Assembly: GCA_965287045.1 (NCBI GenBank)
Contig: OZ336885.1
Span: 65,968,001-66,032,000 of the forward strand
Length of the DNA: 64,000 nt
Direction of reading: 5' to 3'
Origin: Carcharhinus amblyrhynchos
Lineage: Eukaryota
How positions within the stretch are numbered: the stretch's first letter is position 1; each line of letters begins with the position of its first letter. Made by a program: the position numbers and the translations under genes. Shown here in pieces: positions 6,800-61,426 of this stretch. The notes beneath the pieces were generated by a model that ran no database searches, was not told the DNA's origin, and worked only from the letters and a program-made list of their open reading frames with translations.

Positions 6800-6800
<1 letters not shown>

Positions 6801-6882: not shown

Positions 6883-6886
<4 letters not shown>

Positions 6887-17119: not shown

Positions 17120-17255
17120 NNNNNNNNNNNNNNNNNNNNNNNNNNNNNNNNNNNNNNNNNNNNNNNNNNNNNNNNNNNNNNNNNNNNNNNNNNNNNNNNN
17201 NNNNNNNNNNNNNNNNNNNNNNNNNNNNNNNNNNNNNNNNNNNNNNNNNNNNNNN
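17120..17255. other. Assembly gap (136 N) where unit A has the (GT)n microsatellite
   Basis: Run of N; flanks match ~6770 and ~6900 of unit A. Confidence 0.98.
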
Positions 17256-17992: not shown

Positions 17993-18028
17993 ATATGCAA
18001 GTATTGGACGACCTTGTCAGCAAATTCG
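17993..18028 (+). CDS. 36-nt phase-1 exon, (N/D)MQVLDDLVSKF (unit B)
   Basis: ttgtgtttttag|...TTCG|gtgagg. Confidence 0.72.
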
Positions 18029-19357: not shown

Positions 19358-19393
19358 GAGAAACGATGCACCCATCAAGTAGAGGTACTTTCG
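19358..19393 (+). CDS. Unit B copy of 36-nt exon GETMHPSSRGTF; donor lost (GT to GA), in-frame cryptic GT at 19385
   Basis: ctcttgcag|...TTCG|gaaaaa; AGAG|gtactt would give a 27-nt exon. Confidence 0.5.
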
Positions 19394-26424: not shown

Positions 26425-26451
26425 GGGCCAAAGAAGCAATGGAGAAACTTT
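26425..26451 (+). CDS. 27-nt phase-1 exon, xAKEAMEKL
   Basis: tccttttcgaatag|...CTTT|gtaagt. Confidence 0.65.
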
Positions 26452-29400: not shown

Positions 29401-30770
29401 TGCATATACGTGCCAAGAGTAGAGATGTTAGATTTTATTTTTAAGCATCGGCGGCAACCCAGGAACTGAAGTCGGCTTCTTCTACACTAATGTTCGAGCT
29501 ATGCATTCGGAGTCCTGATACGCTTGGTGTTGCGCACATTTCCATACGCTTAGCCAGGAATTCAGACATACTGAGCTTTGATTTTCTGCTTCTGAACTCA
29601 GCACAAAGCTGCACATACTGTCTATATGCAACATTTTTTCTGCTGCCGATAATTCAGCAGCTACAAGGAGTGCAAAGGCTAATCCCTCCCTCGTCCAACG
29701 AAGGTTCCTCTCCCATGCAGGTCTCTTGCATGCGAAGACATCAACTCGAATTCACTCAAATACTTTTTTTTTGCCGAATATGTTGCTAAAGCCAATGTCT
29801 CGACTGTTTTCTGATCAATTACGTCTTGCCTCCCAATATTTTGTTATTTCCTGTCCCACAGTGACATGACAGATTATCTCAGATCTTTTCACTAATGTAA
29901 CTGTTAGTCATGCCTTAGGAATAGGATGTTCTTCTTTTTCATGCGTGTGCTTCCGCGTCTGTGTTAATGAATGATCAAATATATATTTTGAATTAATGTA
30001 ACACAAAGGCACCTCGAAGTCTTTCGTTTGGTTGCACTTAAACGCTGCCTGAAATGTTTTTGATAACATAAAATATCATATACTGGAGCTTATTCGGAAA
30101 TAAGTCAGCAAGAAACAAGAAGAGTTCCAAATATGCACCTTGCACGGTCCAGCCAACTTAAAGTGGAGAAAAGGCAAATCGAGAAACCTAAAGCGAATGG
30201 ATTTCTGTAATCAGGAAGTATGAAAAGAAAAGTCTCAACAATGCCAATTTCAAAGGAAGAAAAAACTGAGAACATTTTTTTCACTTATTGAAGCCAGAAA
30301 CAGGGTGAGAGCAAAATGTGGGCATACATGAATGGCTTCAAAGCGCAGGCTCACTTTCAGAGGAACGTTTCTTCGTTGTGTAATTTTGCAATACACAACA
30401 TGTAATTGAGTCAGAACATTTCGTTAAACAATTTGTTAACTGTTTCATTTGATCAATCTTGCTAGAGTCCAAAGCGAATTTAGTTGATACTTTCTAATAA
30501 AAGTTCGTGCATAATGCACTGTATACCTGAGTAACGGGTGCAGAGTTCACGTTTTTCGAATAAAGTAACACAGGAAGCATATAAAAAAACAGATCTGTCA
30601 ATATTTTTATACGTAGAAAAAGTGGTCACAGTCGATGTGCACATGATGCTCCTCAGATTGAACATATTGTTGTGTCTAAATATCTGGCATCCCCATCTTA
30701 CAATGTTCCAATGAAGACCAATGTAACCTAATGATAAAGCGAGTGTACTGGCATATCTCCCAATTTTGCA

Positions 30771-30978
30771 GTTCACTAAATATAGAACATCACTCCCACA
30801 ATGCGATCTATTTCAGTATGTACATGGCCAAATCTTGGCCTCCCCCATTGCGCAATTCACACTTTATTCTGATGTTCTTCTTTCGCAGAAATCTGAGGCA
30901 GATATTTCCCCTGATTTATCCGATTCCGTTATCTTACAGTTATGCCAGTATCAGGGCCTGCAGTATTCTTTAACATAT
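30771..30978. repeat. Resumption of unit C homology (matches unit A ~967-1167)
   Basis: aaatatagaacatc...cgatctatttcag...gcctcccccattg...gaggcagatatttccc...gcctgcagta shared with 970-1167 and 11279-11478. Confidence 0.9.
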
Positions 30979-32017
30979 CTTTTTTGCATCGTATTCAAAA
31001 AGCATCTGTCACAAGTGCCCTAATTCCAATCAAATGATGCTTTTCTACGTTGATGGATCCCTCTGTAACATTACCATGCACAACTTTATCCGCCTCTCAG
31101 TTGATGAGTATATTTTAAAATTAAGGTCAGATAGCTTCAAGCAGCAGGATGAGGTAATCGATAAAACTTAATATTGTCATCTATTATCCGAACAGAGTAC
31201 TTAGAAACAAAGGCAGGCTGTTTAGCTTTCAGATCTTTATGCACCATTCAGAAATTTTGGGCTGATCAGTTTCCGGACCTACACCAATGTCTCTTCGCTT
31301 TCCCACCCATCTCTGCAATATTACTCGCCATTGACTTGCTAATCAAAACCCTCGACACAACTGCCTTAAAATCATTCCGTGAAATAGATGCAATTGCTTC
31401 TTTGAGTTGGAAAATTACAATCTTCATTAACTCCAAAGTTCAAATTGACTCAAATCACTGTTAAAGGTGAAACCTTTTATTTTTAAAATTTGCCGTGTGG
31501 GTAAAGCACATTCCCTGTATTTGACACTTTATAATACTTCAGAATCTCTCAGAAACAAAGGCAAACATGTGGACTCTAATCGAAACAAACTACTGCACGG
31601 CTGTTACACATCAACGACTTTTACATTGAATTCGTTTGTAAAAAAATCTATAGTACGTGTCCTCAACTGCGTACTACCCACTTATGTAGCGATTCCTGCA
31701 AAGAGTCATACAGAACCAACTGCGATGTTGTTTTTTTTTTGTTGTTTAATTTACTTTTTTTCTAATGCTGTAAAATTGGACCATTTAACTTCCTGTGAAA
31801 CTATGCTCACAAACAGACCATAAAATAAATATTGGACATCAATTGCTCAGATTGGTTCAACGCGGACATAGAGGTGTAGAACTCGTTGGTAATTGGTACA
31901 ATTGTAAATGCAGGAGTTTTACGCTGCAGAGGAGCTGAGGCTGATTGCATCCTAAATATGCAATCTTTATTACAATGTGTTTGCTAGGTAATAATAATTT
32001 TCTTCGTAATTTTACAG

Positions 32018-32044
32018 CCCAATATATAGAAAGAAGTAAAGATG
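32018..32044 (+). CDS. 27-nt phase-1 exon, SQYIERSKD
   Basis: tcttcgtaattttacag|...GATG|gtaaat; only phase-1 frame open. Confidence 0.65.
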
Positions 32045-33153
32045 GTAAATATATTAATCAACAATGCACCCATTGTTTTATCTTTGGCATGTGAGTCGAT
32101 AATGCAATAAGCTGTAGAATTTCACTGTAATTGCGAATGCCAACATAGAATGGATGCAAATATGCGCTCTCTATTTCGAGTAAATGCCAAATTTCCGGTC
32201 CAGTTACAATCTTCGACAAGAACTGCAATGCTCAGGTTCATACGATGCATGGCGTATCGTTAATGACAATTAAGGTTCAGCATTTATTCGGTGAAAATGC
32301 TTTCAGGGATGCAATTGTAGGCGACCACCGATTCGAAACTGATTGCATCAGAAAGAATGGCTATCATCTATCTCGTATGAATTCAGCGCCATTACTTGAA
32401 ATCAAATCCACCGTGTTTTAGGCTACATAGATATCGTCTAGAAAATTAATTCCATTAATCAATACTGTTTCCTATAATGTCAGGCTGTTTGGGTTCCCAG
32501 TGCTTGAAACACGCCTTCATGTTTAGACATTGTTTTGTAATGTTGCGAACGACCCTCTGTTACTGAACAATTGATTCGAAACATGGCATCATACACAGGC
32601 AGAGTAATATGTCAGTGACAAGACAGTTTTTTTTTTAATTTAGATCTCTGCCCTCATGAAGAAATACTGACTCTTAAACGAGCATGCATTTATTTCAATG
32701 CCAATAAATAACATAGCATATGCATTTGCAACTTATCACGGACATAATTACAAAGCAGTCTGACGGCGCGGTCGATTTTTGAAGGTAAACTTTATGTTCA
32801 GTTATGCTGAAGTCAATGATCAGAATAAACGTCTAATACGTCACCAGGGTGATAATTCCTAATTCCTACTATGTGCAGGAAAAAAATGTCTCATTCTATT
32901 TTCCATGATTAATTTCAGGCCGTAGGATAAGAAATTCAAGAGATATCAGAACGTTTCTCCGGTGTCCTTACACAACAAAACATAGTTTCTGTTTTTCTTT
33001 CTAAATTCATTAATTAAGGCAGACAGCAAGCATGATAACATCATTCTCGTGTGCACTGCCACGATTACATGCTGAACACATTGCATTTGAAATTGCATTC
33101 AATAAAAGCGATCAGGGAAGAAAATGGAGAAATTTAAGTATCTCTTTCTATAG

Positions 33154-33189
33154 ACTTAGAGAAAATGAAGAACAAGAGATTAGCTACGG
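33154..33189 (+). CDS. 36-nt phase-1 exon, DLEKMKNKRLAT
   Basis: tctctttctatag|...ACGG|gtaaga. Confidence 0.75.
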
Positions 33190-34045
33190 GTAAGACTAGC
33201 GTTGAGATGGCGCAAATGAGCCTTATGTGTTCTGATAACATATTTAGTCGTTGAAATAGCAAATGTATTTCATGGAACGCACAGCGTTTTTCGCACGTCA
33301 ATGTAACCGGCACATTAGCAGTTAAGAAATGTTTCTGGCAAAATGTTTAGTAAACAATTATAAAGCACGCTTTGAAGTTCTTGGTTGGCAGTGCTATTGT
33401 TATCATCGTATGATTGAAGTCTAAATCCTCGGTCCAAGCTATCCATGAAAGTGGTGTGTTTTGCAACCCAATTTGCATTGCTAATATTCGAGAACAGAGT
33501 AGGCCAAAACTTCTTAGCCTCTAAAACTCTCATTCTTTCAGAATGTTTGTATTCAATTAAAGTTTTGACATGGAAATTGACTATAATATGTGCCTTTACT
33601 CATGTTCACCTTACTTGATTGTCTACACCTGCATGTCATAGAACAGAAATGAAGATATAACATGATGAGAATTTTCGGCGAATAAAAAGACCAGTTAACG
33701 CTGAATGTAAAGATCATGTTATGCTTCAGGATAAACATTTAGAAACGTGTGTGAACAAGTGATTCACATTCAATAGTCTCTCACTTTAACGTAATGAGTT
33801 GAGAGGATATAATGTAACAGATTCTACAATAAGTTGTTCGTTTCTAGAGAGTAAGTCATGTTGCCAGATGACTTTCTAACTGAAAAATAGATACTGTATT
33901 GCGATTCGGAAAACGTGAAAATACAGTGTATTAGACTGGTTTTATGACGAGTAATATAGACCGAGATCCATCCTTCAGGGGTTACTCGCTATTCGAGTTT
34001 CAAATCTAATTCTGACTCAAACATTGCTTCTAATTTATTTTCCAG

Positions 34046-34072
34046 AAAAGAGCCCACATTTCCCACCAACAG
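34046..34072 (+). CDS. 27-nt phase-1 exon, EKSPHFPPT
   Basis: aatttattttccag|...ACAG|gtgaga. Confidence 0.75.
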
Positions 34073-35094
34073 GTGAGAAGTTGCAACTCATGCTTCATTT
34101 TTGACTGTCTGCTTGGGATACCAAATTTTATGTGCTACCGATATATCATTGTGCCAAAAAATCTATGTGATACTGAAGAAATTCATTTCACACAAAGTGC
34201 CACAGAATTTTTTTTCAGTATAAATAAACATGTGCTCTGTCTGGCGTGATGGACAAACATAAATATTATTGACTCAGGTAGGATGCTGTCTTTCAAGAAA
34301 ATCCACCACAAATTAATCGATGAGTGTATGCCAAAAGTTTGTAACCCACACTAGTCATTTCTCTAGATGTTTAACTGATACCTTATCTCCACGTCCCCGG
34401 TGGTCTGTGTCCGATCATCATGGCAACAAATATTATTCTTGATGAAGTTGCACAAGAAAAGCTCAGGAATTTAACACTGATTTGGCCGTTCAACCCATTC
34501 AATCACGTGATCCACTTCGATGTCAACGTCACGACTTTAGCCGCCTTGATGGCGCCGTTATAAGATATGCTGACAGCAGGGACTAAAAATGAAACATCCG
34601 TGTGTGCCATAACGGCGGGATGCCCAGGAAGACTGAAGAAGGTAATTTCCTCCAGCAAAATACGTTGAATCATTTAAAGATAAAATGAGAAATGAAAATG
34701 TTGGAATACTCACTACCTATATCAATATTGGTGGGCAGAAAAAACAGCATTCATTTCGCAAGATATTACATGATGTAAACTTGCCCTCATTTTGTTTTAC
34801 GTGGGCAGAACCCAATAACAACTGGCAGTATTTGCATTTTCAGCTGTCATTTATTATCTTTCGCGTGGAAGATACACGACAGATTCTTGCACGCGTCACT
34901 GTAATAAATGATTGATATTGAACGTATGAATACAAAGTGGTTATACCTTACGGATTTATGGTTTGTGATGTTATCTGTTTCTATAACCCATTGTTTAATC
35001 GGCACCATTCTGTTCAATCTGTACTGCTGCAATGCATGAATGATTATTATCGGCAAAGAGCACCTCAAATGCATGTTGCTTCCAACCAACTTTG

Positions 35095-35750
35095 ATTTTG
35101 ATTTGACTTGATTTGATTTATTATTGTTACATGCATTAACATACAGTGAAAAGTATTGTTCAATGAGCGTTATACAGACAAAGCAGACCGTTAATAGAGA
35201 AGGAAACGTGAGAATGAAGAAAGTAGTGTTACACTCATAGCTAGGGTGTGGAGAAAGATCAACTTAATGCAAGGTAAGTCCACTCAAAAGTCTGACAGCA
35301 GCAGGGAAGAAGCTGCTCTTGAGTCGGTTAGTACGTGATCTCATTGTTTTTCTTGTATCTTTTTCCCTAAGGAAGAAGATGGAGGAGAGAATGTCCCGGG
35401 TGCTTCGGATCCTTAATTATGCTGACTGCTTTGCCGAGGCAGACAGAAGTGTAGACAGAGTCAATGGATGGGATGCTTGTGTGCAGAATAGGTTGAGCTG
35501 CTGTGATGCGTTGCGATTCTGGACAGACCAGGAGCCATGCCAAGCCGTGATTCAACTTGTGTGCATCTGTAAAGGTTAGTTAGAGTTGTAGCTGACCTGC
35601 CAAATTTTCTTAGTCTCCTGAGAAAGTAGAGGCACTGGTGGGCTTTCTTAACTATAATGGTGGCATGGGCTGGGGGGGTGGGGGAGTTGGGTGGTGGGAG
35701 TGCTGGGGATGAGGAGGCTTGACAGATTGTTGGTGATCTGGACGACTAAA
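35095..35750 (-). mobile_element. Rex1/Babar-like LINE 3' fragment
   Basis: (gattt)n tail on plus; minus ORF SIDSVYTSVCLGKAVSIIKDPKHPGHSL typical of Rex1-type RT C-terminus. Confidence 0.75.
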
Positions 35751-35872
35751 ATCTTGTGTTTTTGAACAAATGTATTTACTTATGCAGGCTGAATTGAACA
35801 ATAGTATGTACTGCTGCATCGTGACATTTGTTATGAACCGAGTCTCTCTGACACATATGTCCCTCCTGTTAG

Positions 35873-35899
35873 GTTCTTCAAAGATTACAGACAGTTTCG
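35873..35899 (+). CDS. 27-nt phase-1 exon, GSSKITDSF
   Basis: gtccctcctgttag|...TTCG|gtcagt. Confidence 0.6.
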
Positions 35900-45158: not shown

Positions 45159-45194
45159 AAAGGAACAAACTGCTGATGCGCCTCATCGATGCAG
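45159..45194 (+). CDS. 36-nt phase-1 exon, ERNKLLMRLIDA
   Basis: tgtatgcgctttcag|...GCAG|gtgcgt. Confidence 0.7.
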
Positions 45195-45449
45195 GTGCGT
45201 AGATGAACTCACAGTTAACTTGTCGACATGTTGCGAATTTGGTTGTACCATAATTGCCTGTTGATTTTACCTTTCAATCATATTAATTCTTATGAAATCG
45301 TTATTACTCTGCACAACTATCTCATAGTTGGTTATTGTCTTCTTTACAAACACCCTAGCGTTTAACCAGGAAAAAAAAAGTGCCTTTACAATTACATGTT
45401 ATTGGCATTCTTGCACTTAACGTTTCATATCAAAAAAAGAGAACCGCAT

Positions 45450-45730
45450 TTATGCTCAGCGGTGAGCACTGCTGCCTCAAAGCACCAGATATCCAAGTTC
45501 GATTCCAACCTTTGGTCACTGTCGGTGCGAAGCTTGCATGTATTCCCTGTGTCTCAATGGATTTCCTCCGGTTTCATACCATTGTCAATGTGCAGGTGAG
45601 ATGAATTGGACATTTTAAATTATCCATCAATACAGCCGTACAGGTGCCAAAGTGTTGAATTCGGGTATTTTCAAAGTAACTTAATTGCAGAGCGAATGTT
45701 AACCTATTTTTGACTTATAGATAAACGTTA
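45450..45730 (+). mobile_element. Degenerate HE1/V-SINE-like element
   Basis: gctcagcggtgagcactgctgcctc (A box), gttcgattcc (B box), gatttcctccggttt core. Confidence 0.75.
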
Positions 45731-46231
45731 AATTTAAATAATTCTCCTTCTTTCACCTCAGTATAGATTTTGGTCAGAAATAATTTCGCGTCTTTTCCGT
45801 TACGTTTTCTTGTCCTGTAGTGCAGGTTAGATTGTGCTTGTGGTTAGGACGAATGTCCTGAATTAATAAAATTCATTTCAAGATAATACGTAGCGGCGAA
45901 ATTTGTGCAGTCTGAGTTGTTCTTTCATTTGCCTAATGGATTATCCTGACATGCTATGTCGGCATTTAAGATCATATTACACCCTTTCAAGAAAGAAAAT
46001 ATCATCTTATTGATACAACGTAGTACAGTATTAAACAAGGGTCGTGAAATGTTTTATGTTGACAAATGCACTTGTGTTGCATGACAAATTATTCATTTGT
46101 ATGTAATGCTCATACTGTTTGATATTGTAGCGGTTATGCAACGACCAATGCAAAGCAGGGATTGAAACTCATTGTTTACCTCGAAATAATATGACACTGC
46201 CCCAATGCTATTTTTGTTTCTACAATTACAG

Positions 46232-46258
46232 AAGATAAATTGAAGGCCTGTCAAAATG
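46232..46258 (+). CDS. 27-nt phase-1 exon, EDKLKACQN
   Basis: tttctacaattacag|...AATG|gtaagc; only phase-1 frame open. Confidence 0.78.
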
Positions 46259-46350
46259 GTAAGCAAAGCCTCCCTCAGACACAGTAACACTTGAAAACAC
46301 TTGTTCTGTTTTTCGGATAACTTTTGAATTCTTATTGTTTGTAATCTCAG

Positions 46351-46377
46351 AGCTGAAAGCCTGCAAAACAAGTGGCC
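46351..46377 (+). CDS. 27-nt phase-1 exon, ELKACKTSG
   Basis: tgtttgtaatctcag|...GGCC|gtgagt; 92-nt intron; repeats LKAC of the previous exon. Confidence 0.78.
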
Positions 46378-47961
46378 GTGAGTGCATGACTATTGTTCTG
46401 TAAGTTCACTGAGAAAGGCATAGGCATTACTTACCTGAAAATAAATGATTGCTCCCTCTTCAGGCAAATACACAGATTGCTACTGGAAAAGCAATACTAT
46501 AAAGTGTATGCAAAAGATTGTGGGAAGTTAATCAAAATGATTACATAAATCGAGAGAAATGCGCAATTACTTGACGACATTCACAATTCTCCAGACACGC
46601 TTTTGCCTGTTGATGTGCCTCTAATGTTCCATCGGCATTTATCTGCTTTGCAAATTCAGCACGAAAGCACTGTTCGCTTTTCTTCATGTAAAATGTTGCT
46701 GATCTGAATCAACTTCTGAATGATACAGGTGAATAGTAATGTTGGCTACAAAAGAGCTGCCAGGCAAATGAGTTGGTGTTATCTCTTTTAGAATTAAGTT
46801 ATTTAATGTAATTCCAAGGATCATAACTCTCTTTAAAAGAAACTGAAAATGTGGCCCAACCAGCCAACTGTTCACAGAGCAAAATAATCGATAACATATT
46901 CAGTCAATTCGGCATATTCTAACTTGACTTTGGACATGGAAATGCTTCTGAATGCTAACTTTAAAAAAAATCGATCTTACATGAACAGCTCATGCAAACG
47001 TAATGGTGAAACATTTTGATCTTAAAAAAAAACAAAACAATACATTCTTTAAAGCAAATACCACAAATGTTTAAATAATAAAAAAAAACTTTCTTTTTGG
47101 GGTACACGTGTCATTCATGTAAGCATGCAGTGGAGACATTGGAATAAGTAAGCTGTAATCAAACACGAAAAATGATATGAAGCAACTATTTTGCTCTATC
47201 TATAACTAGAGGTACAATAATAATTCTGAGAAGCGAGGCGAATGTCGTTTACAGAAGTATCCCTTCCGCCAAAAACTCGGATAGTTAGGGTGAGTGAATA
47301 TAAACCAATTGATAAAACAGTTTGGACTTGGGCTCAGAACCCGTATTGTGTCAGAAAGGATTGTGTTGTAAGTTCACGACATAAGCGAGGGATATACAAT
47401 CTCAGCAGCGAGAATTTGCAGCACTGAGGGAGTGTTAGATGAATCTTCATGATGATTTTCAATTGGTTCTGAACTAATAATGCCCTCCGCTTTGCTAATG
47501 GGTGCAGAACAAATGTTGCGATCTTCAGAACAGATGATTATTGTTGTACTTTCTTTCCGGGAAAAGTAGTTTGCTTTTGGGATGTTGAACTCAAAGACAG
47601 TGCGTGATTAAAGGTTGGTTCCTTCTTACATGTGTCGTATTTGGTTAAGCCAAATAAGGAATACATTGGAGAATATGTGTTCAAGTGACTGTCGCATTTA
47701 TGAGTGTGGTGGAGGTCACTTTGAGTGCTTTGCAAAACAAGCTTACACTTGACGAGCAAGCGAAAATTAACTGTTCCTGAATGGACCGGGAATCCATAGG
47801 CGAATTTCGTGATAGACCAGCCCTTGAATTGCAAGCAACCTAGTCTGAATCATGGACATTTACGACAATTCGATATGAAAAAGAGGCAACTTAATTAGAA
47901 ACAAAAGGAAGATAGTGAGATGGAGTTTTGAACTGAAGGAAATGGTACTTAAAATGTTGTT

Positions 47962-48480
47962 GATTTGATTTTGATTTGATTTGATTTTACATTGTCACAT
48001 GTATTAACCCAAAGTGAAAAGTATTGTTTCTGGCACGCTATACAGACACAACATAGCAATCCTAGCGAGAGAGTGCAGAATGTAGTGTTACATAGCTAGG
48101 GTGCAGAGAAAGATCAACTTAGTGCAAAGTCAATTGACTCAAAAGTCTAACAGCAGCAAGAAAGAAGCGTTTCTTGAGTCGGTTGGGACGTGACCTCAGA
48201 CGTTTTTATACTTTTCCCGAAGGAAGAAGGTGAAGAGATAATGTCCAGGGCCGTAGGCTCCTTAAGTATACGGGCTGCTTTGCCGAGGCAGCAGAAAGTG
48301 TTGACAAAGCAAATGGATGGGAGATTGGTTTCCGTGATGGTTTGGGCTACAGTCACGAGTTTTGTAGTTCCTTGCGGCCTTTGGCAGAACAGAAGTCATG
48401 AAAAGTTTGATACAACCAGAAAGGATGCTTTCTAAGGTGCATCTGCAAAAAAAAACGTTGGTGGGAGTCGTAGCTAACAT
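47962..48480 (-). mobile_element. Rex1/Babar-like LINE 3' fragment
   Basis: Same family as 35095; minus ORF FCRCTLESILSGCI. Confidence 0.78.
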
Positions 48481-48511
48481 GATGTTAGAGGAAAATGGCA
48501 ATGCTGAGAAA

Positions 48512-49122
48512 TGTAACGATGAAAGTGAAGGGTTTTGCCTGCCGCGCAGTCTGCTTTAACCCTAATGCAGTGGACAAATAACTTCGAGTAGAGGTCTTAT
48601 TAGTACAACCAACATTTATTTAAACCCACACAATTAATAATCACCCGACTAACAATGTTATCTTACAGAAAATACTAGAATTCAAGTCCAATGCCACAAC
48701 TTGACTTGCAATTGCGTGAGTGACAAGTGCCCAAGCAGATATTGACCTTTACCTGTACATCGTTATCAGTCATTCTCTGCACAGTCTGGCCCTTCGATGT
48801 GGCCTGGCACTCTGGCTCTGGTGTCCCTTCCTTTCTTCTCGGGTGTGGTTGCTCTCATCGTGCTGCTCGTCTCTGGCAATGGTCACCATTGTTGTAGCTC
48901 GTTCTTGGGGCCAGAGAGAGAGAGAGATAGTCCTTGTTGTGCAGCATCCCTTATACTCCATTGGGTTTCATGCCCCATTTGGCCACTGCCAATTATTCGA
49001 TCAGGACATGATTCCCGTGATCGATAAGAGCCCAATCACGCACTGTCACGCCGATCTCCGGGTGTTCCACAACGGCCATGTCTGTAGTTGTTGGGGGTAC
49101 ATAGGTCACATACCTCCCCCCT
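48512..49122 (-). mobile_element. 3' LTR (~600 bp, 49110 to 48512) of an LTR retroelement with adjacent polypurine tract
   Basis: Minus strand reads AGGGGGGAGGTA then TGTGACC...GTTACA; internal TATAAGG (~48950) and AATAAA (~48620) in the expected order. Confidence 0.8.
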
Positions 49123-51868
49123 AAATAACGGGTCATGGAGCCCTTATGACTGGTACACAACCCAGTGTTAACAGAAAGAGCCTTTTATTCTGGAGATGGA
49201 ACAACCCAGTGTGACAATGACGTCTCTTTCACCTTGGGGATCATCCATATCCTGTATATTCACTCGTCTGGGTTGCAGCCTGTTTGTCTCTGTCTTTAAA
49301 CTGCAGCCTGCCGTTTTAGTTCTTGCCCAATTGCCCCAGAGCGTTTTACAAATCGCCATTTTCTATCGCCCTTCTGTCCACAGGAGGAATTAACACGTGA
49401 TTCAGCAAACCCCTATTCGGGATAGTTTTAAATGCATTCAAGAAATTCCAAGGTTTTTCGCGAAGGAAAGATAATTCTATTTCATTCCTATCGACAAAGT
49501 AGTTGAAAAAATAAGTTGTAACTTAAGTGACAGAAGGCTTATTAAGAGCTTGAAAATAAAACACGACTGCGTATGAACTAGTTCCAGAAGCCTAGAGTCT
49601 GAATATGAAAAGTCTGAGGGAGGAACCACGTCAGACGTACATAGATTTTGAACACATGAATAAACTGACATTGATAGGTGGGAACGATCCGTAAAATATC
49701 TGGAATGATACATCGTTATTTTTGGAGGCATCTAAAAATCACTTCACCAAATAAAGAAAACGCAACTTAAAATATGAATGGTGCGCACTGTAGAATCGGC
49801 AGCGAAAAGGCCGATGCTTTCAAATTAGTTTGTAAAATAAAGTTTGGATTCGGACGTAAATTTCAATCTGTAAATGATCAAACTGGTAAAAAAAAACAAA
49901 CATATGGTCAACGAAAATGAGTTTTCCTCGGATATATGTTTGCCTCATGAAGAAAAGTGAATGTGGAAAAGATTTACGAGGGTTACTTTTTCTTTTCATT
50001 GCAACTCAATTGGACACACTCGTTGGGGCCAAACAGTACCGAAGGAGTACACGTGGATTCTAGCAACTTCACTGCGGCTATAAAGTCAAATTATTCAGTT
50101 GGAAGGCTGCATTGGGAAGGCGGGGCAAGCAAGTTGTATTACCGAATTGGATTTACTTAAATAGTTTGAAGTAACTTTATCAGAAGGGGTGAAAGACCTT
50201 TCGGCTATTATGACATCAGATACGTAGCAGCAGTTTAAACTTACGCGACTTGAAATGAAAAAAAAATGAGCCAAAAGCATTCGAAAGTCCACTCCACAAT
50301 CTATCAATATTATCGATCTGGTTGTGCTTGTTAACTGTATTGAAAATGTCACTTGATCTTAGGTGGACAATTGTTTCTTTGGAATTGAGACTGTGTTAAG
50401 TTAACAATTTAAATTGATACATTTCATTTTCTTCAAACCATTGTTCGACTGTTACAATTTGTGATGCTTCATTCTAGAGTCATAGAAGTTTAGAGGGTGG
50501 AAACAGGCCCTTCGGCCCAAATTGTCCTCGCTGCCCTTTTGTTTCAACCTTTAAGCTAATTTTCTTAGAGATTCTTAAACTGTTTAACGAATAAAGCTTG
50601 TCTTGATAAAATATTTAGAATTTATTTTCGCAGTTTCTGTTGGTTTAACCATGCCATCGTCTCTATGTTAGCAACAAACTGGATGCCCAATCTGGCTGAA
50701 AAATATATCTGGGGCCCAGGACCCTCACCTATAGGTAGCTGAAAAGGGCAAAATGCCCAAACACGCGGTGAACGTTTGTTTCTGCTTCGTTGCCCGTTTG
50801 TTTTTTTTTTAAGCACAGTTCCGGTAATATTCAACTAAACTTGGTCCCGATTACAAATGTTAGAAATGTTCGAATTATTGACGCCGGCGCCCAGGGATAT
50901 TTGCTTGGTGCTGATGATGTTGCCTTGCTACATTCAAGCATGGACTATGGTCCAGACACAAGTTTGTAGCATTTCCGGCTATAATAATGATGTAAACAAA
51001 CGTTTTACAGTCGCCCCGAAAAGGAACAGAAAAAAAAAACTGTCTGATTCTCCATTATAGTGCTGTTGGTGAACAAAATCGAGGGTGTCACTGCGCTCTC
51101 ATAACGCTATCACTTTTTTTCAATAATAAAACGAGAGCATATCTGCTGAAGGCAATATTTTGCCAATCATTGGAGTTTTCCACTGCATATGACCAATGTA
51201 ATTTACGAACGCTCATTAGATTTTTTACTACTTCTGCATTGTTTTCTTATCTGATTCATGATGTTCGTTTATATACACTCATTTTAATTAATTTTAATAC
51301 GAAGACAATGTGCATAAGATTGTTTGAATTTCCCCCCGTTTTGACGTTCGAATTAATGGACGGACAATTTGAAATCGCAGTATTGAGGCTCAAGAATTTG
51401 GGGAAAAAAAATCAGATCGTCCATCGGCAAGCAGGTGTTTTTCAAATAATAAAACATTGTCTGAAGTTGAAACGTGCGCTGATTACACGAACAACACAGC
51501 ATTTTCTGCATATTTATTTTTGCATGACCTTGGATCCATAGAATAACTAGCGTGCCGAAGTAGGCTGATCCGTCCCAATAACCTGCAAAGACTCTCTCTA
51601 AGAGCTTTGCAACCAGCATCCACCCCCAGCGTGCCTCCATCCTTGTCCCGTCTTGGACTCCTGCTCTTTTCTATGCATTTTCCTTGTTCAATCCCTCTAA
51701 CCATTTTTGAACTAAGTGCAAATTGAATGACAGGATTCTCCACGGCAAACATGTTTTATTTTTGACTGCGTGGACAACAGATGTGTTTCTCTCGAAAATT
51801 TGAAATCGCAGTTCTCCAGTTTTTTTTTATCTATAATGTTTCTAATTATTTCACACTTGTTTCCCTAG

Positions 51869-51895
51869 AAACTGACCTGATTAAATGCCAATTGG
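51869..51895 (+). CDS. 27-nt phase-1 exon, (Q/E)TDLIKCQL
   Basis: cttgtttccctag|...TTGG|gtaact; only phase-1 frame open; shares L-x-x-C-Q with exon 46232. Confidence 0.68.
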
Positions 51896-52046
51896 GTAAC
51901 TATTTTATTTTGAGTATTTTCTACATCAAGATACGGTAGTACATATCAACAATACACCATTTTTATGTGCATAGCAATGTTGCGATAGAGGAATGAATTT
52001 CACTCCTTTACGAAACATCAACTCAAAAAAAGGAGAAAGTTATAAG

Positions 52047-52345
52047 CGGCATTGTGGTGCATCGGTTAGCACTGTTGCCACACAATGCCAGGGTTCAAGG
52101 TTCAATTCCTGGCTTGGGTCACTGTCTGTGTGACGTTTACAATTTGTTTGCGTGGATTGCCTCCGGGTGCTCCGGTTTCCTGCCACAGACCGAAGATATG
52201 TGGGTTAGGTTAATCGGGCATGCTAAATTGCTCCTTAGTGTCAGGGGGACTGGCAGAGTGAATAGGGTTACGGGGATAGGACCTGTATGGGATCATGGTC
52301 GCCGTAGAATCGATGGGTCGAATGGCCTCCTCTGTACTTTGGGGA
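52047..52345 (+). mobile_element. HE1-type tRNA-derived V-SINE
   Basis: ggttagcactgttgcc A box, ggttcaattcc B box, cctccgggtgctccggtttcc central domain, LINE-like 3' tail. Confidence 0.9.
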
Positions 52346-53759
52346 TTTTATGTTTCCACGATGTGAAGTGGGCCCTCCTCCCCTCCGGTGGACAGTGCCG
52401 TACTTGATTTAACAACAATCGTTACAAATTCCATGATAGTTCTGACAAGCATGTACAACAATCTGTTTTTTTTTTCCAAATTTTGATTTTTTTCTTTGTG
52501 CAAAATACTTTTCAGATATGCAAGAAATACTGTGCATTGTTATGCGTTAGATTTGCTTAGTATGCATCAAATTTTGATTACATTTCTGCTCAATTATTGG
52601 ATCCCGTAGAAGGGAAATTATTTCAGCAGTATGAATGATATTGTCATGTGTAATAGGATGACGGTTGCAATTAGATAATCGCTCAGCATTTTATTACAAT
52701 CGTATTTCTAACAATCAGTTTAATGTTCCCATATAAGCAAACGATGAACAGATTACGTTAATCATGATCTTCCTTCTGAATCTAAAGTTGAAGAGACTAA
52801 AACGTTCGAAATGTATGATAAGGACAGATATAATTCGAATAGTGATCTGAATTCCCATAATAATTGCAGATATAGCGGGGCAAATTTGAATAAGTCTACT
52901 TTAATTGAAGATAACACTCGAGGCACTAAATAACTCAAATGTGACGGCAATTGAGAACTTTCCGGCATCATTATTGAAGACCACTCCTCCAGACTTAGCT
53001 GTAACATTAGGCAAGTTTATTTTTTTCCCTCGTATCCGGAACATTAGAAGACTTTGTGGAGAATAATTATGACATTTCAGTGGGAAAAAAAACGCATCCC
53101 AAACTATAACACAATTGTTTAATTCTCGGTTCTCAGCAATTTGATGGGGACTTTCATAAACTCTACTAAGAGTAATCATTTATTAAATAATAATCAACCG
53201 ACTGACATTGAGTTGCATCTTCCAGGGGCCAATAATGTTATCATTGTCCAAACAAGGAGAAAAAGAGCTGAATCCAAGAGTTCTGTTGAAAAGCGTTCAC
53301 GCTAACAACCCCAAAATTGACTGTTTCTCAACTCAACCATGCATCGAAAATCATACATCTATGGAGCCCAGTTGTAAAGTTTTACTTTGACTGGAGCAAT
53401 TCATGGCACAAACTAAGTACGTAGAGATGATTGAGATTGCTACAAGTCATTCTGAATTGCCTCCACACATCCCTTGTTGACAATCCTCTTCGAAATGGTT
53501 AGATCCAAACAACATCAGCTCTTTCATCAACGAATCCCTGTGAGTCCCAAGTTGAAAATGCGGTTTGTTGCAGAATATTCAAAACGCCTCACCATTGCTG
53601 AGATGTTAAGCGATCTAAGACTCTTTGAGGAAGGGTTGGACTGTATTTCGACGTGAACTGGAAAGGGAAAGTTTAATATTTATGTCATATATGTCTGACA
53701 TAAATGATTACCTCCAAGAAGAGCGCATCTATCGATTTACCGATATTCATCACGTTGCA

Positions 53760-54930
53760 ATCAATGTGCCATTTTGGTCAACATGCTCAGCTGAGGTACC
53801 ACCTGTACCTCAGCTGATATACTGTCTGGAAATGTGGATCTGTCGGCCTAGATCCATCTGTATTATTTGTAAGGGTTCCACAATTCACTGCATACTTTCA
53901 TTCTGCAATAAGGCTTCCAAATCGCAAAACCGTTCCTTTGTCAGGGTGAAACTCCATCTGCTATATTTCTAGTCAGTTTTCCACCCGAATATATCTTACT
54001 GAATCCTCTACAAGTCATTCTCACTTTCCGCTACTCACCCAAGTTTTGTGTTGTCTGCAAATTTGCTAATCAGGCTACTTACATTTGCTAATGAGACTAC
54101 TTCTGAATAATTTATGTACGTGATCGCAAGCAACATAATCTCCAGCAGTGATCATTTTGGAAGACGGTTTGTCAAAGACCTCCATTCGGAAAACTACCCT
54201 TGTACTGAGACTGTCTGCTTTCAAAATACAAACGAGTTTTGTATCCATCTTACCAGCTCAACACGGATCCCATATTGCTTCACTTTCTGTATCAGCTGCC
54301 ATGCGCCTGATGGAAGGCCGTACGAAAACCCATGCATGCAGCATCCACAGCCCTGTACTGGTCATTGTTTCTTCTCACTTCCTCAAATACGTCAGCCACG
54401 TTAATGCATCACGAGCTCCCCTCCAGAAAACCTTGCTGCCTGCCTCGATTAAGCCTTTCCACTTCTAGACGCTTGCACATCCTGTCCGAAAGAACCTGTC
54501 CAATTCAGTTCCCCATCACTGGTGTAAGACTCAAAGGTCCGGAATTTCCCGGATTTCCTCGTCTGTCTTTTATATGTTTGCTGCTCTGAAATCTTCTGGT
54601 CGTTCACCCGTGACTAAAAAGGATACAGAGATGTTGCCCAAGTCCTCAACAGATTTTTCCCGCCTCACTCTCAGTATTCTGGAATAGATCCTATTTGACT
54701 GTAAATACCCCTCACCCCCTCATTTTTTAAAACTTTCAGTATCTCCTTCCTTTTCATCTCAAAACGTCTTCCAATGATAACAACCTCAGTTCTACACTTA
54801 CCATCCACCTCATTCTTCTCCTTTGTGAATACAGATGCAATGTACTCGTTAGGGACCTCGCCTGCCTCATCTGGCTCAACAAATAAATTCCCCCCACCGT
54901 CGTTTACTGACCCGACAATTTCCGTACTGG
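53760..54930 (-). mobile_element. Degenerate CR1 RT fragment
   Basis: Minus ORF NEYIASVFTKE; ttgtgttgtctgcaaattt is the reverse of the KFAD motif region. Confidence 0.85.
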
Positions 54931-55371
54931 TACAACCGGGAGATTGACCCCCCGCTCTCATGTAACCACTTAGAGGAGAGGATGTTACTTTATGTGCTTT
55001 TAAACGTGAGTGAGAAGTAGTGTGATCTGCTCTTCAGCAAATTTGGTGATCAGCTCAAAATAACTGCATGAAACTTTTTCAGTAAAACATACAAGTAACA
55101 GTTTTTTTACTTAACTAACACTGAACAGGTTGACTAAACTATTAACATACCACATAAAGCGCTATTCAAATAGAATGCTGTTTAGATCAGTACAAATCCC
55201 ACTTTTTCGCAAGGAGTAGATTATTTACAACCACACTAAACGTATAATCAGATTTTACATCCAGAGATATTCTATTGTCATCCTTGTTTCTTCTGCATGG
55301 TATCTTTGGCTTCCTTCAATATGTTTTCAATTCATACGAGTTTTGCGCTAAAATAAATTAATTGTGGCAAA

Positions 55372-55454
55372 GAGAGTAGTTGATAACAGAGACCAGTTAT
55401 TTTTGTCTCTTGAGAGTAGTTGATAACAGAGACCAGTTATTTTTGTCTCTTGAG
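55372..55454. repeat. Perfect 40-bp tandem duplication
   Basis: gagagtagttgataacagagaccagttatttttgtctctt x2. Confidence 0.97.
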
Positions 55455-55729
55455 CTGAAATATCTCTTTGCTACATCTTATGTCATATCAACATCAGGTT
55501 ACAAAAACATCAACCTCAAATCTGATAGGCTGCTGTTAGTACAGTTTAAACCAGGATATATTGTTTAAGCCTGTTGTCTTGGCAATACTTCAACCTGGCC
55601 TCCTGATGTCAATGTTTCACTCCAAGCTCTCTGGGTTCATGTACTTTACAGAAAACAGACAACTCTAAATACAACAGGCATCATCCTTTTAAAAGATAAT
55701 TTTACAAACACCAACGTCACAACACATCA

Positions 55730-57720
55730 TTCCTAGGAGGAAAAAATGAAACATGATCATTAAAAGACAGCTTCACTTCTTTTCTCCTTGTAAACTCAGG
55801 CCAAACGATGTGCAAAAACAAAGAGCAAAAGACAGGGGAAATTACAACACAGGGAGACGACCTCCGGCCTTCGAAACCTGAAATACCCATGCTGCCGATT
55901 GACCTAAGACCACCTACTCTTCTGCGGACCACATCCCTCTATTCCCATCCTACTTTTGAAATTGTCATAATGACCCTGAAATTTCACTATCGCATCTGAT
56001 CCACTAATTCCCTCGGCAGCGAGTCCAAGGCACCCAACTTTCTTTGTGTAAAAAAAAGTCTCGCACATCTTGAAATATCGCCTCTCACAGCTTAAACCTA
56101 TGCTCTCTAGGAACTGGATCTCCCACCCTGGGAAAAAAACTATCCACTCAGTCCATGTCCTTCATGTTCTTGTAGACTTCTATCACTATTCCATTGATCG
56201 AGTGAGAACAAAACAGGTTTGTGAAAACTCTCCCTATAGCTAATATCGTCTTCCATACGAGACAGCATCGTTCTAATCCTTTTCTGTACCCTCTCCAAAA
56301 CCTCCACACCCTACCAGTAGGGCGGCGACCAGAATTGAGTACTATATTCCAGGCACGTTCTAACTAAGGTGCTATAAGGCTGCAACATGATTTTCCAATT
56401 TGTAAACTCAACCACCACCCCCCCCCACAAATCACCCACAATCCCACAGCCCCCCCCCCCCCACCCACCCACCCCCGGGAAGGGGGTGAGTGGTGGGGTG
56501 GGGGGGGAGGTTTGGAGTTAAGTATGCCATATGCCTTATTTATTTTTCTTCTCCCCCTGTGATACTACTTCCGTGACCTCTGTATCTGCACACCCATATC
56601 CCTCTGCCTATCAATACTCTTAAGGGTTCTGCCATTTACTGAATATTTCCACCAATCATCTTCGTCACTCCTTTGAAAAACTCGATCAAGTTATTGAAAA
56701 ACGACCTCCAATTCACATAATCATGTTGCCTGCACCTAACACGTCTACTTATTTCAAATGGGAGTCAGCTCTACCTCAAAGATACTTGTCCACTAATTTC
56801 TTTCCACTGACGTAAGGCTCGCCACCCCTTGTAAACAAAGAAACACCATTTTCTATTTTCTAATACTCTGGGATCTCTGCTGCAGTCAGTAAGCGTACAA
56901 AAATGTTTTCAAGGCCCAACAATTTCTTCCCTAGCTTTTTCCAGTGTTTTTGAGTATATCCATCTGTCCCTGGGAACCTGTTTACCTTTTCTTTTTCAAG
57001 CCCACATTACCTCATTCTTTATGATCTTAAAATAGCCCAAACTGGCTACACACCTTTGCCTGTCGTCCAGGAAATCTTTTCCGTTGCTGAATACTGAATC
57101 GTTTTACACTCTCCTCTCTTCCTTCTCAAACTTCTGTATCATGGAATGTTTATCTACCAATCCTATCCTTCCCTTAACCAAGGCTTTGTAATGGCAATAA
57201 CATCTTAGTTTCAAGTAATAATCCAATGTTTTTTTTTATGTCACTCCAGGCTCTGAATTAATCTGCCTTACCTGTTACACTGCCCGCATTAAAACAAATG
57301 CTCTTCAACCCAGCAGGTCCTCTTTGACCAGCAACCGCACCGTGCCTGCTCTTGTTTCTGTGCCTTACTGGCCCCCCTCTAGTTTCTTTTAAGTATATTC
57401 ACCTTTGTTTTGATCCCTATATCCTGCCAAACGAGATTATGCCCTCCAGCATGACACTAACATCGCCACCGACCAGTAAGTTAAAGCGCCTTCACTTTAG
57501 TTGCAAAAATTCCTTCTTATAAAGGTTCCACCTGCCCCGGAATTGATCTCTACGTATAAATATCTGAAACTGTCCCTCAAATACCAGCTGTTTAGCTGTA
57601 CTATCACCCGATTTCGATTCTTGAACAATGTTTAATTGTTCACATTGAACAATGTTTAATCCTGAGATTACATCCGAAAGTATTTTTTGAACATTCTATC
57701 GAATTCCCCAAACCTGCCGA
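55730..57720 (-). mobile_element. Internally deleted degenerate CR1 pieces
   Basis: Colinear similarity to 39700-41050 and 44196-44760 (e.g. tatcaatactcttaagggttc, gcattaaaacaaatg); boundaries approximate. Confidence 0.75.
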
Positions 57721-59012
57721 AGAAAAAGCACTTGCCTTAACATACGTGAAGTCTTATGGTTCAAAGACTCCAGTTAACAGTGTACGCGAGATCTTTGTCT
57801 TGTCGCTGTGTCATTAGCTCAGTCTCCATGTCAATGATGTGCAGCCAAAGATATCCAGATTATTCCATAAGCATTGCCGAGGACATAAAAAAACACAAAC
57901 GTAGACATTTCACTTGCGCTATTCCATTCTCCTTAAAATGTTTCAGTTCATGCTTAGAACATTTCATTCAATTACTTTGATTACTCTTACTGAATATTGT
58001 ATTAACCTTATCAGTAGTGGGCATTCATTTCAAGAATGAGAAACACTAATTATCACCATAAACTACCCAACAGCTTGCATCATTCGTTGTATCGAAATTA
58101 ATAATACAAATCCTATCGCGCTAACCAAATTAGAAATCTTTCCTAAATCACACTGAAACATCTGTTCATATGTTTTTTTTTAGCAGTTTCTTGTTTATTA
58201 ATTAGCAGCTCATGCTGTTCTTCGCCCATATTCCGGAAACGTTTTCAGACTGCAAACTTTGTGATTTAGTCTTCCCATTTCTGTTGAATGTCAAATAAAA
58301 TCAACAGTGTCTCTTTATGAATAGATTGCCACTCATTTACTCACAAAAACTCCCAGAAGCCAATGCTAAGTTCAATTAAGAAATGTATTGTTTTTATATT
58401 CTGAAACGGAGATAACAGATTTTGTTATGAAAAAAAAGTAATGACTTACGTTTTTTTTTTATTTTCGCCGTTCTTCTATTGAACTCGGGCTGGAAAAAGG
58501 ACCATTGTTTCACATTGGTTAATATAATTAAAGCTGCAGCTGTCAGTTAAATGATAAATACAAAATAAATATTGATGTTTAAATGTCATTAATAATCCCT
58601 TCCATACCCCAACTGCCACTAATGAATGTTTGCTCACCTATTTAATGTCAATAAGGTAGCAAAAAACAAGACTCCAAATGGCCTTAAAAGTTTTATTAGG
58701 AATAAACGGGGTGGGGGGAAGATCTGTTCATTTCCGTGTACTGAATCTTTTTTTTCGTGGATTAAAGTTATTGGGCAATGTAGATAAGAAACACAAACCA
58801 AATATCTCGCCAGTAATTTGGAATTTAAAAAATGACCTGCAAATGAAACAGCACATTTAGCACAATAAGATTATTCAAATTAATGTGTTCCTTATGAAAA
58901 TCTTCGACTCAACATCATCTGAAGATGTTAGATATCCGTTTTTGTTTTGTCGTGAAGTACCTGAAATTTCTATTTTAATACCTGATGTTTCATGTCTGCT
59001 TCTGTATGACAG

Positions 59013-59048
59013 AAACTGAAAAAATGAAGCAAGAACTGATACAGAGCG
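59013..59048 (+). CDS. 36-nt phase-1 exon, ETEKMKQELIQS
   Basis: ctgcttctgtatgacag|...AGCG|gtaaaa; shares EKMK with exon 33154. Confidence 0.7.
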
Positions 59049-60014
59049 GTAAAAAAAATGAAGATAATCATGATTAATACTTCTCATTGTTCATTTTCAC
59101 TCTGCTTCATATTGTCATCCAGCAATGTTTGCAGCTGCACAATTGTCCGAAAAGAGTCACGATGCCTGTTTGCTGAAAGTGAAGATGATTGTTGAACACA
59201 TTAGCAGTATTTAGGCTTAGAAATAACATGCAAAACAAAACATAAGAGTACTGGAAATCTTCCACGTCTCACAGCATCTGTGGACAGAGAATAGAGCCTT
59301 AGTTTTGAGGCTTGATTGCCTTTTGTCAAAGTTGAGACTTTCCAGCATTTTCTGTTTTTGTTTGAGATTTCCAGTATTTCAGTGTTTTGCTTTATCTCAG
59401 ATCAAACATGTTGGAAGTTACAAATTCTAACGTGTATCAAGGCACAATTCTGATCAGCACATGACAAGGAGGTGTACCTCTTCTGGAGAGATTGCATTGC
59501 AGCTTTATACGGACTGTCCCGGAGTTGGAAGTTACAGATATCAAAAGAGTTTGGGATTATCGATGATTTTTTGGAATGGAATTTAGGGAGGTGATACATA
59601 CTCGTTTGCGAATAGTAGGAGAACCGTCGATGGCATAAATAGAAAAAAAAGTGTTTTCCCATAGCTCAAGAGTCAATTGCAGGAAGCTATTGGTTTTCTG
59701 TGGTTAGTAGGTGGATTAGAATATAGACGAAAGAACAATTAATGTCAGCCAGATATCTGTGGATTTCCGCGATTCACAGCTTGAACAGCTGTTTGGGAAT
59801 GAAGCGCTGAACCCAGTTAAGATCTAAGTCGTGCTGTTCTGTAGTATTTAAGTATTTGATTGAGCTGAAAGTAAATAACTGACTTTTTTGTGTTATTTTC
59901 CCGGAAGTTGCAATGGGCTGAACTGTCCAATTATGTATCACGACGTTTAGGCCACACTGTATGATTGGATGTTGCAGTTCCTCCACTTGTGAAGAAAAAC
60001 AATGATGCCAATGA

Positions 60015-60160
60015 AATTGGATAGGTTTATGGACAAAAAGGGATTGGTTTAGATTAGTGGGTCAATGTTTTTTTTTAAAATAAGACTGGTCGGCGCAACA
60101 TTGTGGGCCGAAGGGCCTGTTCCGCGCTGTAATGTTCTATGTTCTATGTTCTATGTTCTA
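60015..60160 (+). mobile_element. CR1 3' terminus with (TTCTATG)n tail; further CR1 fragment ~59420-59700
   Basis: gtgggccgaagggcctgttccgcgctgtaatgttctatgttctatgttctatg. Confidence 0.85.
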
Positions 60161-61399
60161 AATTTATTCGATGGCAGACCAGCCATACATCTGGTACTTC
60201 AATTCTCGACTATGCAATCCCGTTAAAATTGTGAAATTGAATGCATTAACAGATTTGGTGTGCTAAAAAATAGTCAAAATATTGAAAGATTATTTTAATA
60301 ACAGAGTCCTTACTTTCCTTAAATTCACTGTCGACTCTTTTTTTGTGACCAACATCCCGCTCTCGTCCCCTCCATCCCTCCCTATCCCCGCCGCACCCTC
60401 CCCCCCACCCCCCCGCCAACCACGCACCCCACCCCCCACCCCCCACCCCCGCCCCTCATTCAATGCACATCCTTCCCTGGAGAACTCTCTTGCACTGTTT
60501 TCTTTAAATCCATCATGTTGGTCTAATGATTTAAGTACCAGACATGAACTCATTCCAAATACAGAACAGTTCCCGGGGTATTTATCGTCTCCTGCTAATT
60601 GCACTAAAAAAAACCGAACACCAAGCGTGCTTAGGCGCTGCAAAGAAAGATGCCGCGCAGGTTATTGAGCAGTTGACTTCTGGTCGAGGCATGAGCGCCA
60701 CGCTTATTTTTCATATGTTCGTTGGCGTAAACAAGCAATGTTCAAAGGTCGTTGTCTGGTCAGGGAACATGCAAACGTCTTTACGAAAAGCATAGATTTG
60801 GGGAGAACCATGAGTTCGCAAATTCTCGTTGTGTCAACCGGCGGGGAACATGCAGCTTGGTGTGTTTTGAAGTAGTTGTCACCGGAATCTTGTGATCAGT
60901 AATTTGAGAAAAAAAATAAGAATAGTTATTGTCTTGCCATTCTCGGTCTTTATAATTGTTCCCTGTAGGTTCAAAAACGTTTCCTCTTACCATTTCCTTC
61001 GTATGTATCTGCGCAACTATAGAAGAACTATCCAACTACACCAGTGACTAAAGTTGCATTGCCGCATATTTTGCAATGCAGTTCAACTGTCTGTAGAATG
61101 TTTGCAATTCTGGGAAATTACCCCGCCACATATACCCCGCCATACTTCTCAAGTCCGAACTTCCAAAGCATTTTCACTTGTGTCCCAGCAAATCCAAAAT
61201 TGGCAACATTGAAGTTACGGCAAAATAGATTCCACTCGTTCTCCGTAAATGTATCTTTAATGCAATGTTAGATGCGATTGCTTGTCAATTTTGCGTGAAG
61301 CAAGTTATACAAAACAAGTTTGTACTTAATAATGGCGTTAACAATAATAATAATAATAATAACAGATTTAATACTTCCAAAATATTTCGACATATTCAG

Positions 61400-61426
61400 G
61401 CGTGAACTGGAGCGAAATTTTCCAAG
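61400..61426 (+). CDS. 27-nt phase-1 exon, GVNWSEIFQ
   Basis: tttcgacatattcag|...CAAG|gtaaag. Confidence 0.65.

Follow-up and report, generated by a model that had tools for sequence, protein, structure and literature searches.

Micro-exons of the shark Carcharhinus amblyrhynchos as probable internal parts of a very large coiled-coil rod gene ending in a B30.2 exon

Six short open segments of 27 or 36 nucleotides (nt) lie on the plus strand of a 64,000-nt stretch of Carcharhinus amblyrhynchos DNA (contig OZ336885.1, here C16, 65,968,001–66,032,000; the window below), and the question raised by this locus is what gene they belong to. The first-pass annotation had joined them into a heptad-bearing peptide ending with a Trp-containing segment at 61,400, and had read this peptide as possibly the greatly extended cytoplasmic tail of a butyrophilin- or BG-like receptor. 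Here the segments are explained as internal members of an array of ~175 exons that ends in a B30.2 exon, the whole forming one rod gene whose product would be exported through an N-terminal leader (probability about 0.48). The architecture alone, taken without export, was considered very probable. Positions outside the window are given in extended window coordinates (C16 = 65,968,000 + position).

Splice-site candidates were scored using a simple weight matrix, and the scorer used residue composition, not position. All six segments have AG and GT ends and open phase-1/phase-1 frames and join to the peptide described, which upholds the earlier reading of heptad micro-exons in phase 1; its attribution of the DNA to a cartilaginous fish was also right. 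At a score of at least 4, eight candidates of 27 nt and nine of 36 nt were found in the window (mean for other lengths, 1.1), none of either length was found on its minus strand, and the window holds ~17–20 micro-exon candidates, not six. The exon at 46351 lies 92 nt after that at 46232–46258, a spacing also kept in repeated modules upstream. A tandem-repeat search of the six-segment region returned short unrelated repeats only.

The array covers 908 kb. It starts 435 kb upstream and ends 467 kb downstream, and the window lies in its middle, wholly inside it. Along this length 96 candidates of 27 nt and 80 of 36 nt were found, against 20.4 +/- 5.2 (maximum 31) for other lengths, and the phase-1 frame is open in 91 and 70 of them, respectively. 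Candidates of 21 nt are enriched locally only, the whole array having 26 on the plus and 27 on the minus strand; the minus-strand excess was dismissed as background plus a recurrent retroelement-derived match. At the cut-off used for chaining there were 184 plus-strand and 11 minus-strand candidates, so that ~6% of the chain may be false. The chain comprises 175 exons (90 of 27 nt, 70 of 36 nt and 15 of 21 nt) with a median spacing of 3.5 kb, and encodes 1,755 residues with no stop at any junction. It omits a 21-nt exon at +463,971, taken for a repeat and real to judge by a paralog, and one row that is truly repeat-derived; non-helical exons fall under the cut-off.

The heptad register runs through the exons in a regular way. 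Hydrophobic residues occupy positions 2, 5, 9 and 12 in 83, 54, 70 and 31% of the 70 exons of 36 nt, and position 4 in 76% of the 90 exons of 27 nt. One 36+27 nt pair spells 21 residues, or three heptads, with a continuous a/d pattern. In the 3' part of the chain (781 residues) the power at period 3.5 was 2.53, against a maximum of 2.14 across 500 shuffles. The heptad part is the bulk of the protein and not an appended tail.

The segment at 61400–61426 is the weakest of the six, with weak splice sites, 407 kb before the array ends. Its score band is unenriched (19 candidates of 27 nt against 14, 23 and 13 of the 24-, 30- and 33-nt controls), 14 candidates of 27 or 36 nt along the array contain Trp, and a genome search returned no second copy of its DNA. 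The special role given to it by the first-pass annotation was not confirmed, and the odds that it is a real hinge exon are about even. It was rejected as the exon before B30.2, and as the end of the tail, because exons of 27 and 36 nt go on for 406 kb beyond it. The predicted order of a Trp-containing 27-nt exon and a phase-1 B30.2 exon does exist on the plus strand, at +467,465 and +468,397; its location at 61,400 was wrong. Trp is the first full codon of the exon at +467,465, and no further copy of the DNA around that exon was found in the genome. The terminal exon at +468,397, the one phase-1 B30.2 exon given by the downstream search for PRY-SPRY, encodes an intact 170-residue domain (Pfam SPRY, E 1.7e-12) of the B30.2/PRY-SPRY superfamily. 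This domain matches 80 solved sequences (best E 9e-17), with TRIM58 and BTN3A at the top, and its exon is the only one for B30.2 in 1.46 Mb.

Splicing of the array into one transcript is inferred from database models of relatives, assumed to be RNA-based. The array might instead be no single functional unit: several shorter transcripts could arise from it, or a short 3' gene could be preceded by decaying duplicated exons, those of the window included. Such an arrangement would suit the short database models of most relatives (130–460 amino acids, aa), the window's recent tandem cassettes and their non-helical exons, the 20–30 kb gaps in the chain and a candidate 5' frame that has no ATG. It was judged unlikely, since the phase-1 frame stays open and the register is kept along the whole array, no second B30.2 exon lies inside it, and relatives have models of 945 aa (catshark) and 1697 aa (chimaera).

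The duplicated cassette at 3658–19393 lies inside ~10.3-kb tandem copies of 86–91% identity that reach upstream of the window. Three to four such copies, of exon plus intron, were seen from -18,000 to 21,500, and they carry non-helical micro-exons with alternative 27/36-nt donors (9115, 19358). It was by such tandem copying that the array grew in and upstream of the window. One array intron (+128,600 to +130,700) holds gag- and protease-like open frames of a long terminal repeat (LTR) element, named from their motifs. The features are collected in Table 1.

Table 1. Positions of the micro-exons, array parts and candidate frames
Feature	Position	Strand	Remarks
36-nt phase-1 micro-exon, 12 residues	45159..45194	+	acceptor -2.0, donor 6.0; combined score 11.0
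27-nt phase-1 micro-exon with Cys	46232..46258	+	acceptor 4.2, donor 4.8; combined score 18.3
27-nt phase-1 micro-exon	46351..46377	+	weaker 21-nt donor also present
27-nt phase-1 micro-exon	51869..51895	+	acceptor 4.3, donor 1.2; combined score 11.4
36-nt phase-1 micro-exon	59013..59048	+	acceptor 3.8, donor 0.7; combined score 13.1
Trp-containing 27-nt candidate	61400..61426	+	weak, score 2.1; possibly a hinge exon, not the pre-B30.2 exon
Duplicated micro-exon cassette	3658..19393	+	36 nt at 3658, 7649, 9115, 13927, 17993; 27 nt at 19358
Further micro-exon candidates	26425..35899	+	27 nt at 26425, 32018, 34046, 35873; 36 nt at 33154
21-nt exon block	-434,937 to -309,794	+	13 scored at least 5
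27/36-nt array	-289,713 to +463,991	+	
Terminal Trp 27-nt exon	+467,465-467,491	+	
B30.2 terminal exon	+468,397-468,911	+	AATAAA 453 nt past the stop
Tentative leader-like frame, strong donor	-475,602 (or -475,620) to -475,443	+	best plus-strand candidate
Leader-like frame	-510.9 kb	-	

A receptor of the butyrophilin or BG kind would be expected to have Ig and transmembrane exons upstream of the heptads. Profiles for IgV, IgC and RING/B-box, with shark and fish butyrophilins used for Ig, were run on 23,696 frames from 1.86 Mb. Upstream of four arrays (this one and three paralogous ones) no IgV match was found on the sense strand, the single wrong-strand match having E 0.6, and neither the IgC nor the RING/B-box profile gave a match; the latter matches 101 of 232 proteins. 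As a positive control, the IgV profile detected the V exon of a divergent nectin-like kind that lies downstream (E 0.008). From -600 to -280 kb, exons ending in phase 1 and holding a hydrophobic window of 19 residues were sought and not found, a scan that a short first-exon anchor would escape, and none of transmembrane type was found upstream of two paralogs. For these two the distance to the end of the preceding gene is ~92 and ~40 kb. None of the 35 genome matches to the butyrophilin IgC family lies on C16; such matches are found chiefly on C46 and C53, and two of them on C9.

The neighbourhood holds other genes. At +520,954 on the plus strand, 52 kb downstream of the B30.2 exon, lies the V exon just mentioned (nectin/PVRIG-like; Pfam V-set, E 3e-12), followed at +525,677 on the same strand by a transmembrane-type exon; the pair forms a separate small receptor gene. 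A strongly hydrophobic transmembrane-type segment followed by basic residues was noted on the minus strand at ~+503,376, and a trefoil-domain exon (Pfam, E 2e-10) at +633,177. On the 5' side a minus-strand micro-exon array stands head to head with this gene, from ~-540 kb (C16 ~65.43 Mb) to beyond -797 kb, in which exons of 27/36/30 nt come first, ahead of a block of 21-nt exons. Its probable terminus is the B30.2 exon at 63.74 Mb, which would give it a length of ~1.7 Mb, the middle of this span lying outside the coverage.

Relatives of the gene were found on the same contig and in other cartilaginous fishes. Five close paralogs of the B30.2 exon lie on C16 at 60.4–63.7 Mb (38–58% identity) and one on C9 (106.38 Mb). 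Exons of 27 or 36 nt occur just upstream of all five on C16, and in 120 kb before the paralogous exons, that on C9 included, 19 candidates of 27 nt were sense and one antisense. In two paralogs the last 27-nt candidate, or the one before it, has its Trp at the corresponding place, as is the case in skate and chimaera models. The last strong 27-nt exon of the gene at 63.07 Mb matches the residues joined to B30.2 in catshark XP_038668997. Within 60.4–63.7 Mb of C16 four more micro-exon/B30.2 genes were seen, in tandem and tail to tail, and higher-order exon modules recur among the paralogs. The best single-domain HMMER matches were proteins of little skate, small-spotted catshark, numbfish, basking shark and elephant shark, which the databases label TRIM39-, TRIM58-, TRIM69-, A33- or nuclear-pore-anchor-like; a Pfam scan of 13 subfamily proteins found no Ig and no RING family. 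Word-index homolog searches, which are insensitive, gave in one case no match, in another mostly TRIM and butyrophilin matches with one subfamily member, and in another one match. Poorly named chordate clusters of 1,277–1,802 aa with PRY/SPRY and coiled-coil-type families appear in a database listing and serve as leads only.

A tree of B30.2 domains was made with members picked by their score to a profile of the six C16 sequences, with isoform duplicates left out and a midpoint root only. The subfamily (the six on C16 and their relatives; 15 of 15 rows) forms one side of a 100/100 branch, and on the other side are 8 butyrophilin, 18 TRIM and 9 unclassified rows, with the shark butyrophilins nested among the TRIMs. 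Matches to class I of the major histocompatibility complex (MHC) are all on C9 (82 of 82, at 89–101 Mb); the C16 cluster is therefore on another contig, with the one family member of C9 near them. Large clusters of ordinary B30.2 exons were noted on C46, C53, C73, C9 and C41.

Since no Ig or transmembrane exon was found, the relatives have no Ig or RING, and the B30.2 domain falls outside the butyrophilin/TRIM group, the receptor proposed by the first-pass annotation is unsupported, and what is supported is a B30.2 protein with a BG-like micro-exon rod. A membrane protein with a giant cytoplasmic tail could still have escaped the scans if its Ig exons, its transmembrane exons or both were too divergent, or if only the anchor were left. 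The exon order (21-nt heptad exons, longer units, Trp 27-nt exon, B30.2) is butyrophilin-like according to the available parts of PMC4046983 and PMC6790196, and in the chimaera model basic residues come after a hydrophobic stretch. This was held improbable: the IgV profile is sensitive enough for the nectin-like V exon and the IgC profile found nothing, one array starts only ~40 kb from the preceding gene, and the head is outside the shark butyrophilin group.

Whether the rod leaves the cell is the least certain part of the favoured explanation. Export is favoured because of two leader-like starts in relatives, Cys-poor heads and rod Cys patterned by exon position. The starts are hydrophobic in skate XP_055510696 (3.3; 295 aa, head 49% identical) and chimaera XP_042192744 (2.7). 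Heads of the subfamily have a mean of 0.7 Cys against 2.5 in butyrophilins and TRIMs (Mann-Whitney p 2e-4, rows not independent) and 1.6 in the unclassified rows. The rod has 46 Cys, which gather at position 5 in exons of 36 and 21 nt and at position 7 in those of 27 nt.

Several observations weigh on the other side. N-glycosylation sequons number 3 in the rod against 7.3 expected, and are more numerous in the unclassified B30.2 control rows than in the subfamily. Leader-like starts precede the rod in only two of nine homolog clusters, the other seven starting within the rod, at the head or in sequence that seems unrelated. In one more protein of the skate cluster the hydrophobic start continues without a break into the B30.2 exon; this has the look of read-through from an intron and could explain the skate start too, and the chimaera stretch with its basic cluster would suit a cytosol-facing anchor. 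The candidate 5' frame at -475.6 kb has no in-frame ATG before its hydrophobic stretch, and leader-like frames are about as frequent upstream as chance would give (2 and 2 in 105 kb, chance being 1.67 per 100 kb). A comparison of four paralogs in their upstream intervals gave no common 5' exon. One gene would also call for a single mRNA across 0.9 Mb.

Upstream leader-like frames were accordingly dropped as support for export, their frequency being that of chance. The frame at -475.6 kb is single-copy in the genome, and the one ATG close by upstream is in a different frame, with a stop after it; a non-ATG start, an upstream exon, an assembly error or chance may lie behind it. The chance rate applies to frames of the kind at -510.9 kb; for the frame at -475.6 kb no like case occurred in 898 kb, where 6 control frames were compared at thresholds set after the frame had been seen. 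The only block common to the paralogous upstream intervals has the appearance of an old mobile-element remnant and was not accepted as a first exon. Several kb of C16 at ~61.076–61.082 Mb are collinear with -513 to -522 kb at 64–75% identity; these blocks look like decayed copies of an LTR-type element. The N-terminal part of the chimaera model had no match in this genome.

The same gene and rod could encode a soluble cytosolic protein with its Met start in a micro-exon, an enterophilin- or zipper-protein-like scaffold tying cytoskeleton or vesicle machinery to the B30.2 head. This is possible, if rather doubtful, and export is favoured modestly over it. B30.2 domains are established as usually cytosolic, seven of the nine clusters lack a hydrophobic start, and the upstream searches for Ig, RING and transmembrane exons were negative. 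The available parts of two sources add that a coiled-coil protein derived from a BG tail acts on actin-myosin (PMC8813856) and that enterophilin-1 binds sorting nexin 1 (PMC13749957). The seven starts resemble 5'-incomplete models, however, and a cytosolic rod would leave the Cys-poor heads, the patterned rod Cys and the two leader-like starts to be explained.

In the favoured explanation, that of an exported rod, ~175 symmetric phase-1 micro-exons would be spliced into a long segmented coiled-coil rod with a terminal B30.2 head. A parallel coiled-coil oligomer would hold the heads at the rod end, with occasional non-helical hinge exons; the rod would reach up to ~1,750 residues, or ~260 nm, if all exons were used. 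Cys at fixed exon positions would stabilise it and could link chains. Rod length would change in evolution by duplication of exon plus intron, and in the cell by exon skipping, because every exon is phase 1-1. Among isoform pairs of relatives, five of eight differ by internal cassettes and the other three at the start only; the five distinct cassettes have 9, 9, 9, 7 and 6 residues, the sizes predicted by micro-exon skipping. The head would bind a protein ligand, with a probable role in innate defence, as for other B30.2 domains, and the protein would leave through its N-terminal leader without being attached to an Ig receptor. More tentatively, cartilaginous fishes at large may have secreted disulfide-stapled coiled-coil rods, hundreds of nm long and B30.2-tipped, as an extracellular collectin-like recognition or scaffold system, encoded by megabase genes of 100–175 micro-exons, with the rod length tuned by exon duplication and cassette skipping. 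The available parts of a shark skin proteome (PMC10707392) hold a one-peptide 'A33-like' entry that is not assignable to the rod family, and those of a Greenland shark plasma paper (PMC13701976) hold no relevant entry.

Along several Mb of one arm of a shark chromosome there appear to be at least six giant genes, which are broken up or misnamed in standard annotation; if the rods are secreted, annotation breaks their genes into 'TRIM-like' fragments. The B30.2 lineage of the family would be at least as old as the shark-chimaera split. The arrays offer a natural test of how 21–36-nt micro-exons are recognised across introns of 3.5 kb median length, and another of exon-by-exon coiled-coil growth, the paired 36+27 unit being unlike the 21-nt BG unit. 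An exported protein would point to an extracellular, rod-mounted role of B30.2 in early jawed vertebrates, and a cytosolic one would have a bearing on how the tails of butyrophilins, BG proteins and enterophilins arose. No description of the rod family was found in the literature searched, which left most subscription journals outside its coverage.

Among known systems, butyrophilins have heptad exons in phase 1 together with a 27-nt exon. Enterophilins of the guinea pig join a long heptad rod of ~30 heptads to a C-terminal B30.2 domain, without Ig, transmembrane or RING parts, and are cytosolic. A heptad rod with B30.2 and no other part found is common to them and the shark gene, as far as the general description of enterophilins goes. 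Vespryns (ohanin) of snake venom are secreted B30.2 proteins, with a leader and B30.2 and no long rod, and form a precedent for an exported B30.2 domain. TRIM proteins of the PRY-SPRY class share a coiled coil and B30.2 with the shark gene, and relatives carry their names ('TRIM39-like', 'TRIM69-like', 'A33-like'), but RING/B-box was not found upstream of the arrays or in the relatives, the rod is made of micro-exons and the clade is separate. According to the available parts of four sources (PMC4046983, PMC8813856, PMC6790196, PMC12841164), butyrophilins combine Ig domains and a transmembrane segment with a few heptad exons and B30.2, and BG proteins have IgV, a transmembrane segment, many 7-residue exons and no B30.2. 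A series of small heptad exons with a B30.2 exon at its end is common to the shark gene and the butyrophilins (BTN/BTNL, ERMAP; PMC4046983, PMC6790196, PMC8813856, in the parts available), and BTN3A is among the best solved matches; the shark gene differs in having ~175 exons rather than few, mostly of 27/36 nt, no IgV, IgC or transmembrane exon found, a head in a separate clade, and a C16 cluster off the MHC class I contig with one member on it. The coiled coil of chicken BG is spelled by tiny exons, each with 7 or sometimes 8 residues, whose number and splicing vary, in the available part of PMC4046983. Chicken BG and zipper protein, in the parts of the sources at hand, resemble the shark gene in their long coiled coil of many tiny exons. 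BG has IgV and a transmembrane segment where the shark gene has B30.2 and a span of ~0.9 Mb; each BG exon carries one heptad, whereas in the shark gene the two exons of a 36+27-nt pair share three heptads and only 15 of the 175 chain exons have the 21 nt of the BG tail. The gene would work in the manner of a BG tail carrying a B30.2 head, but it does not pass the Ig, transmembrane and clade tests for membership.

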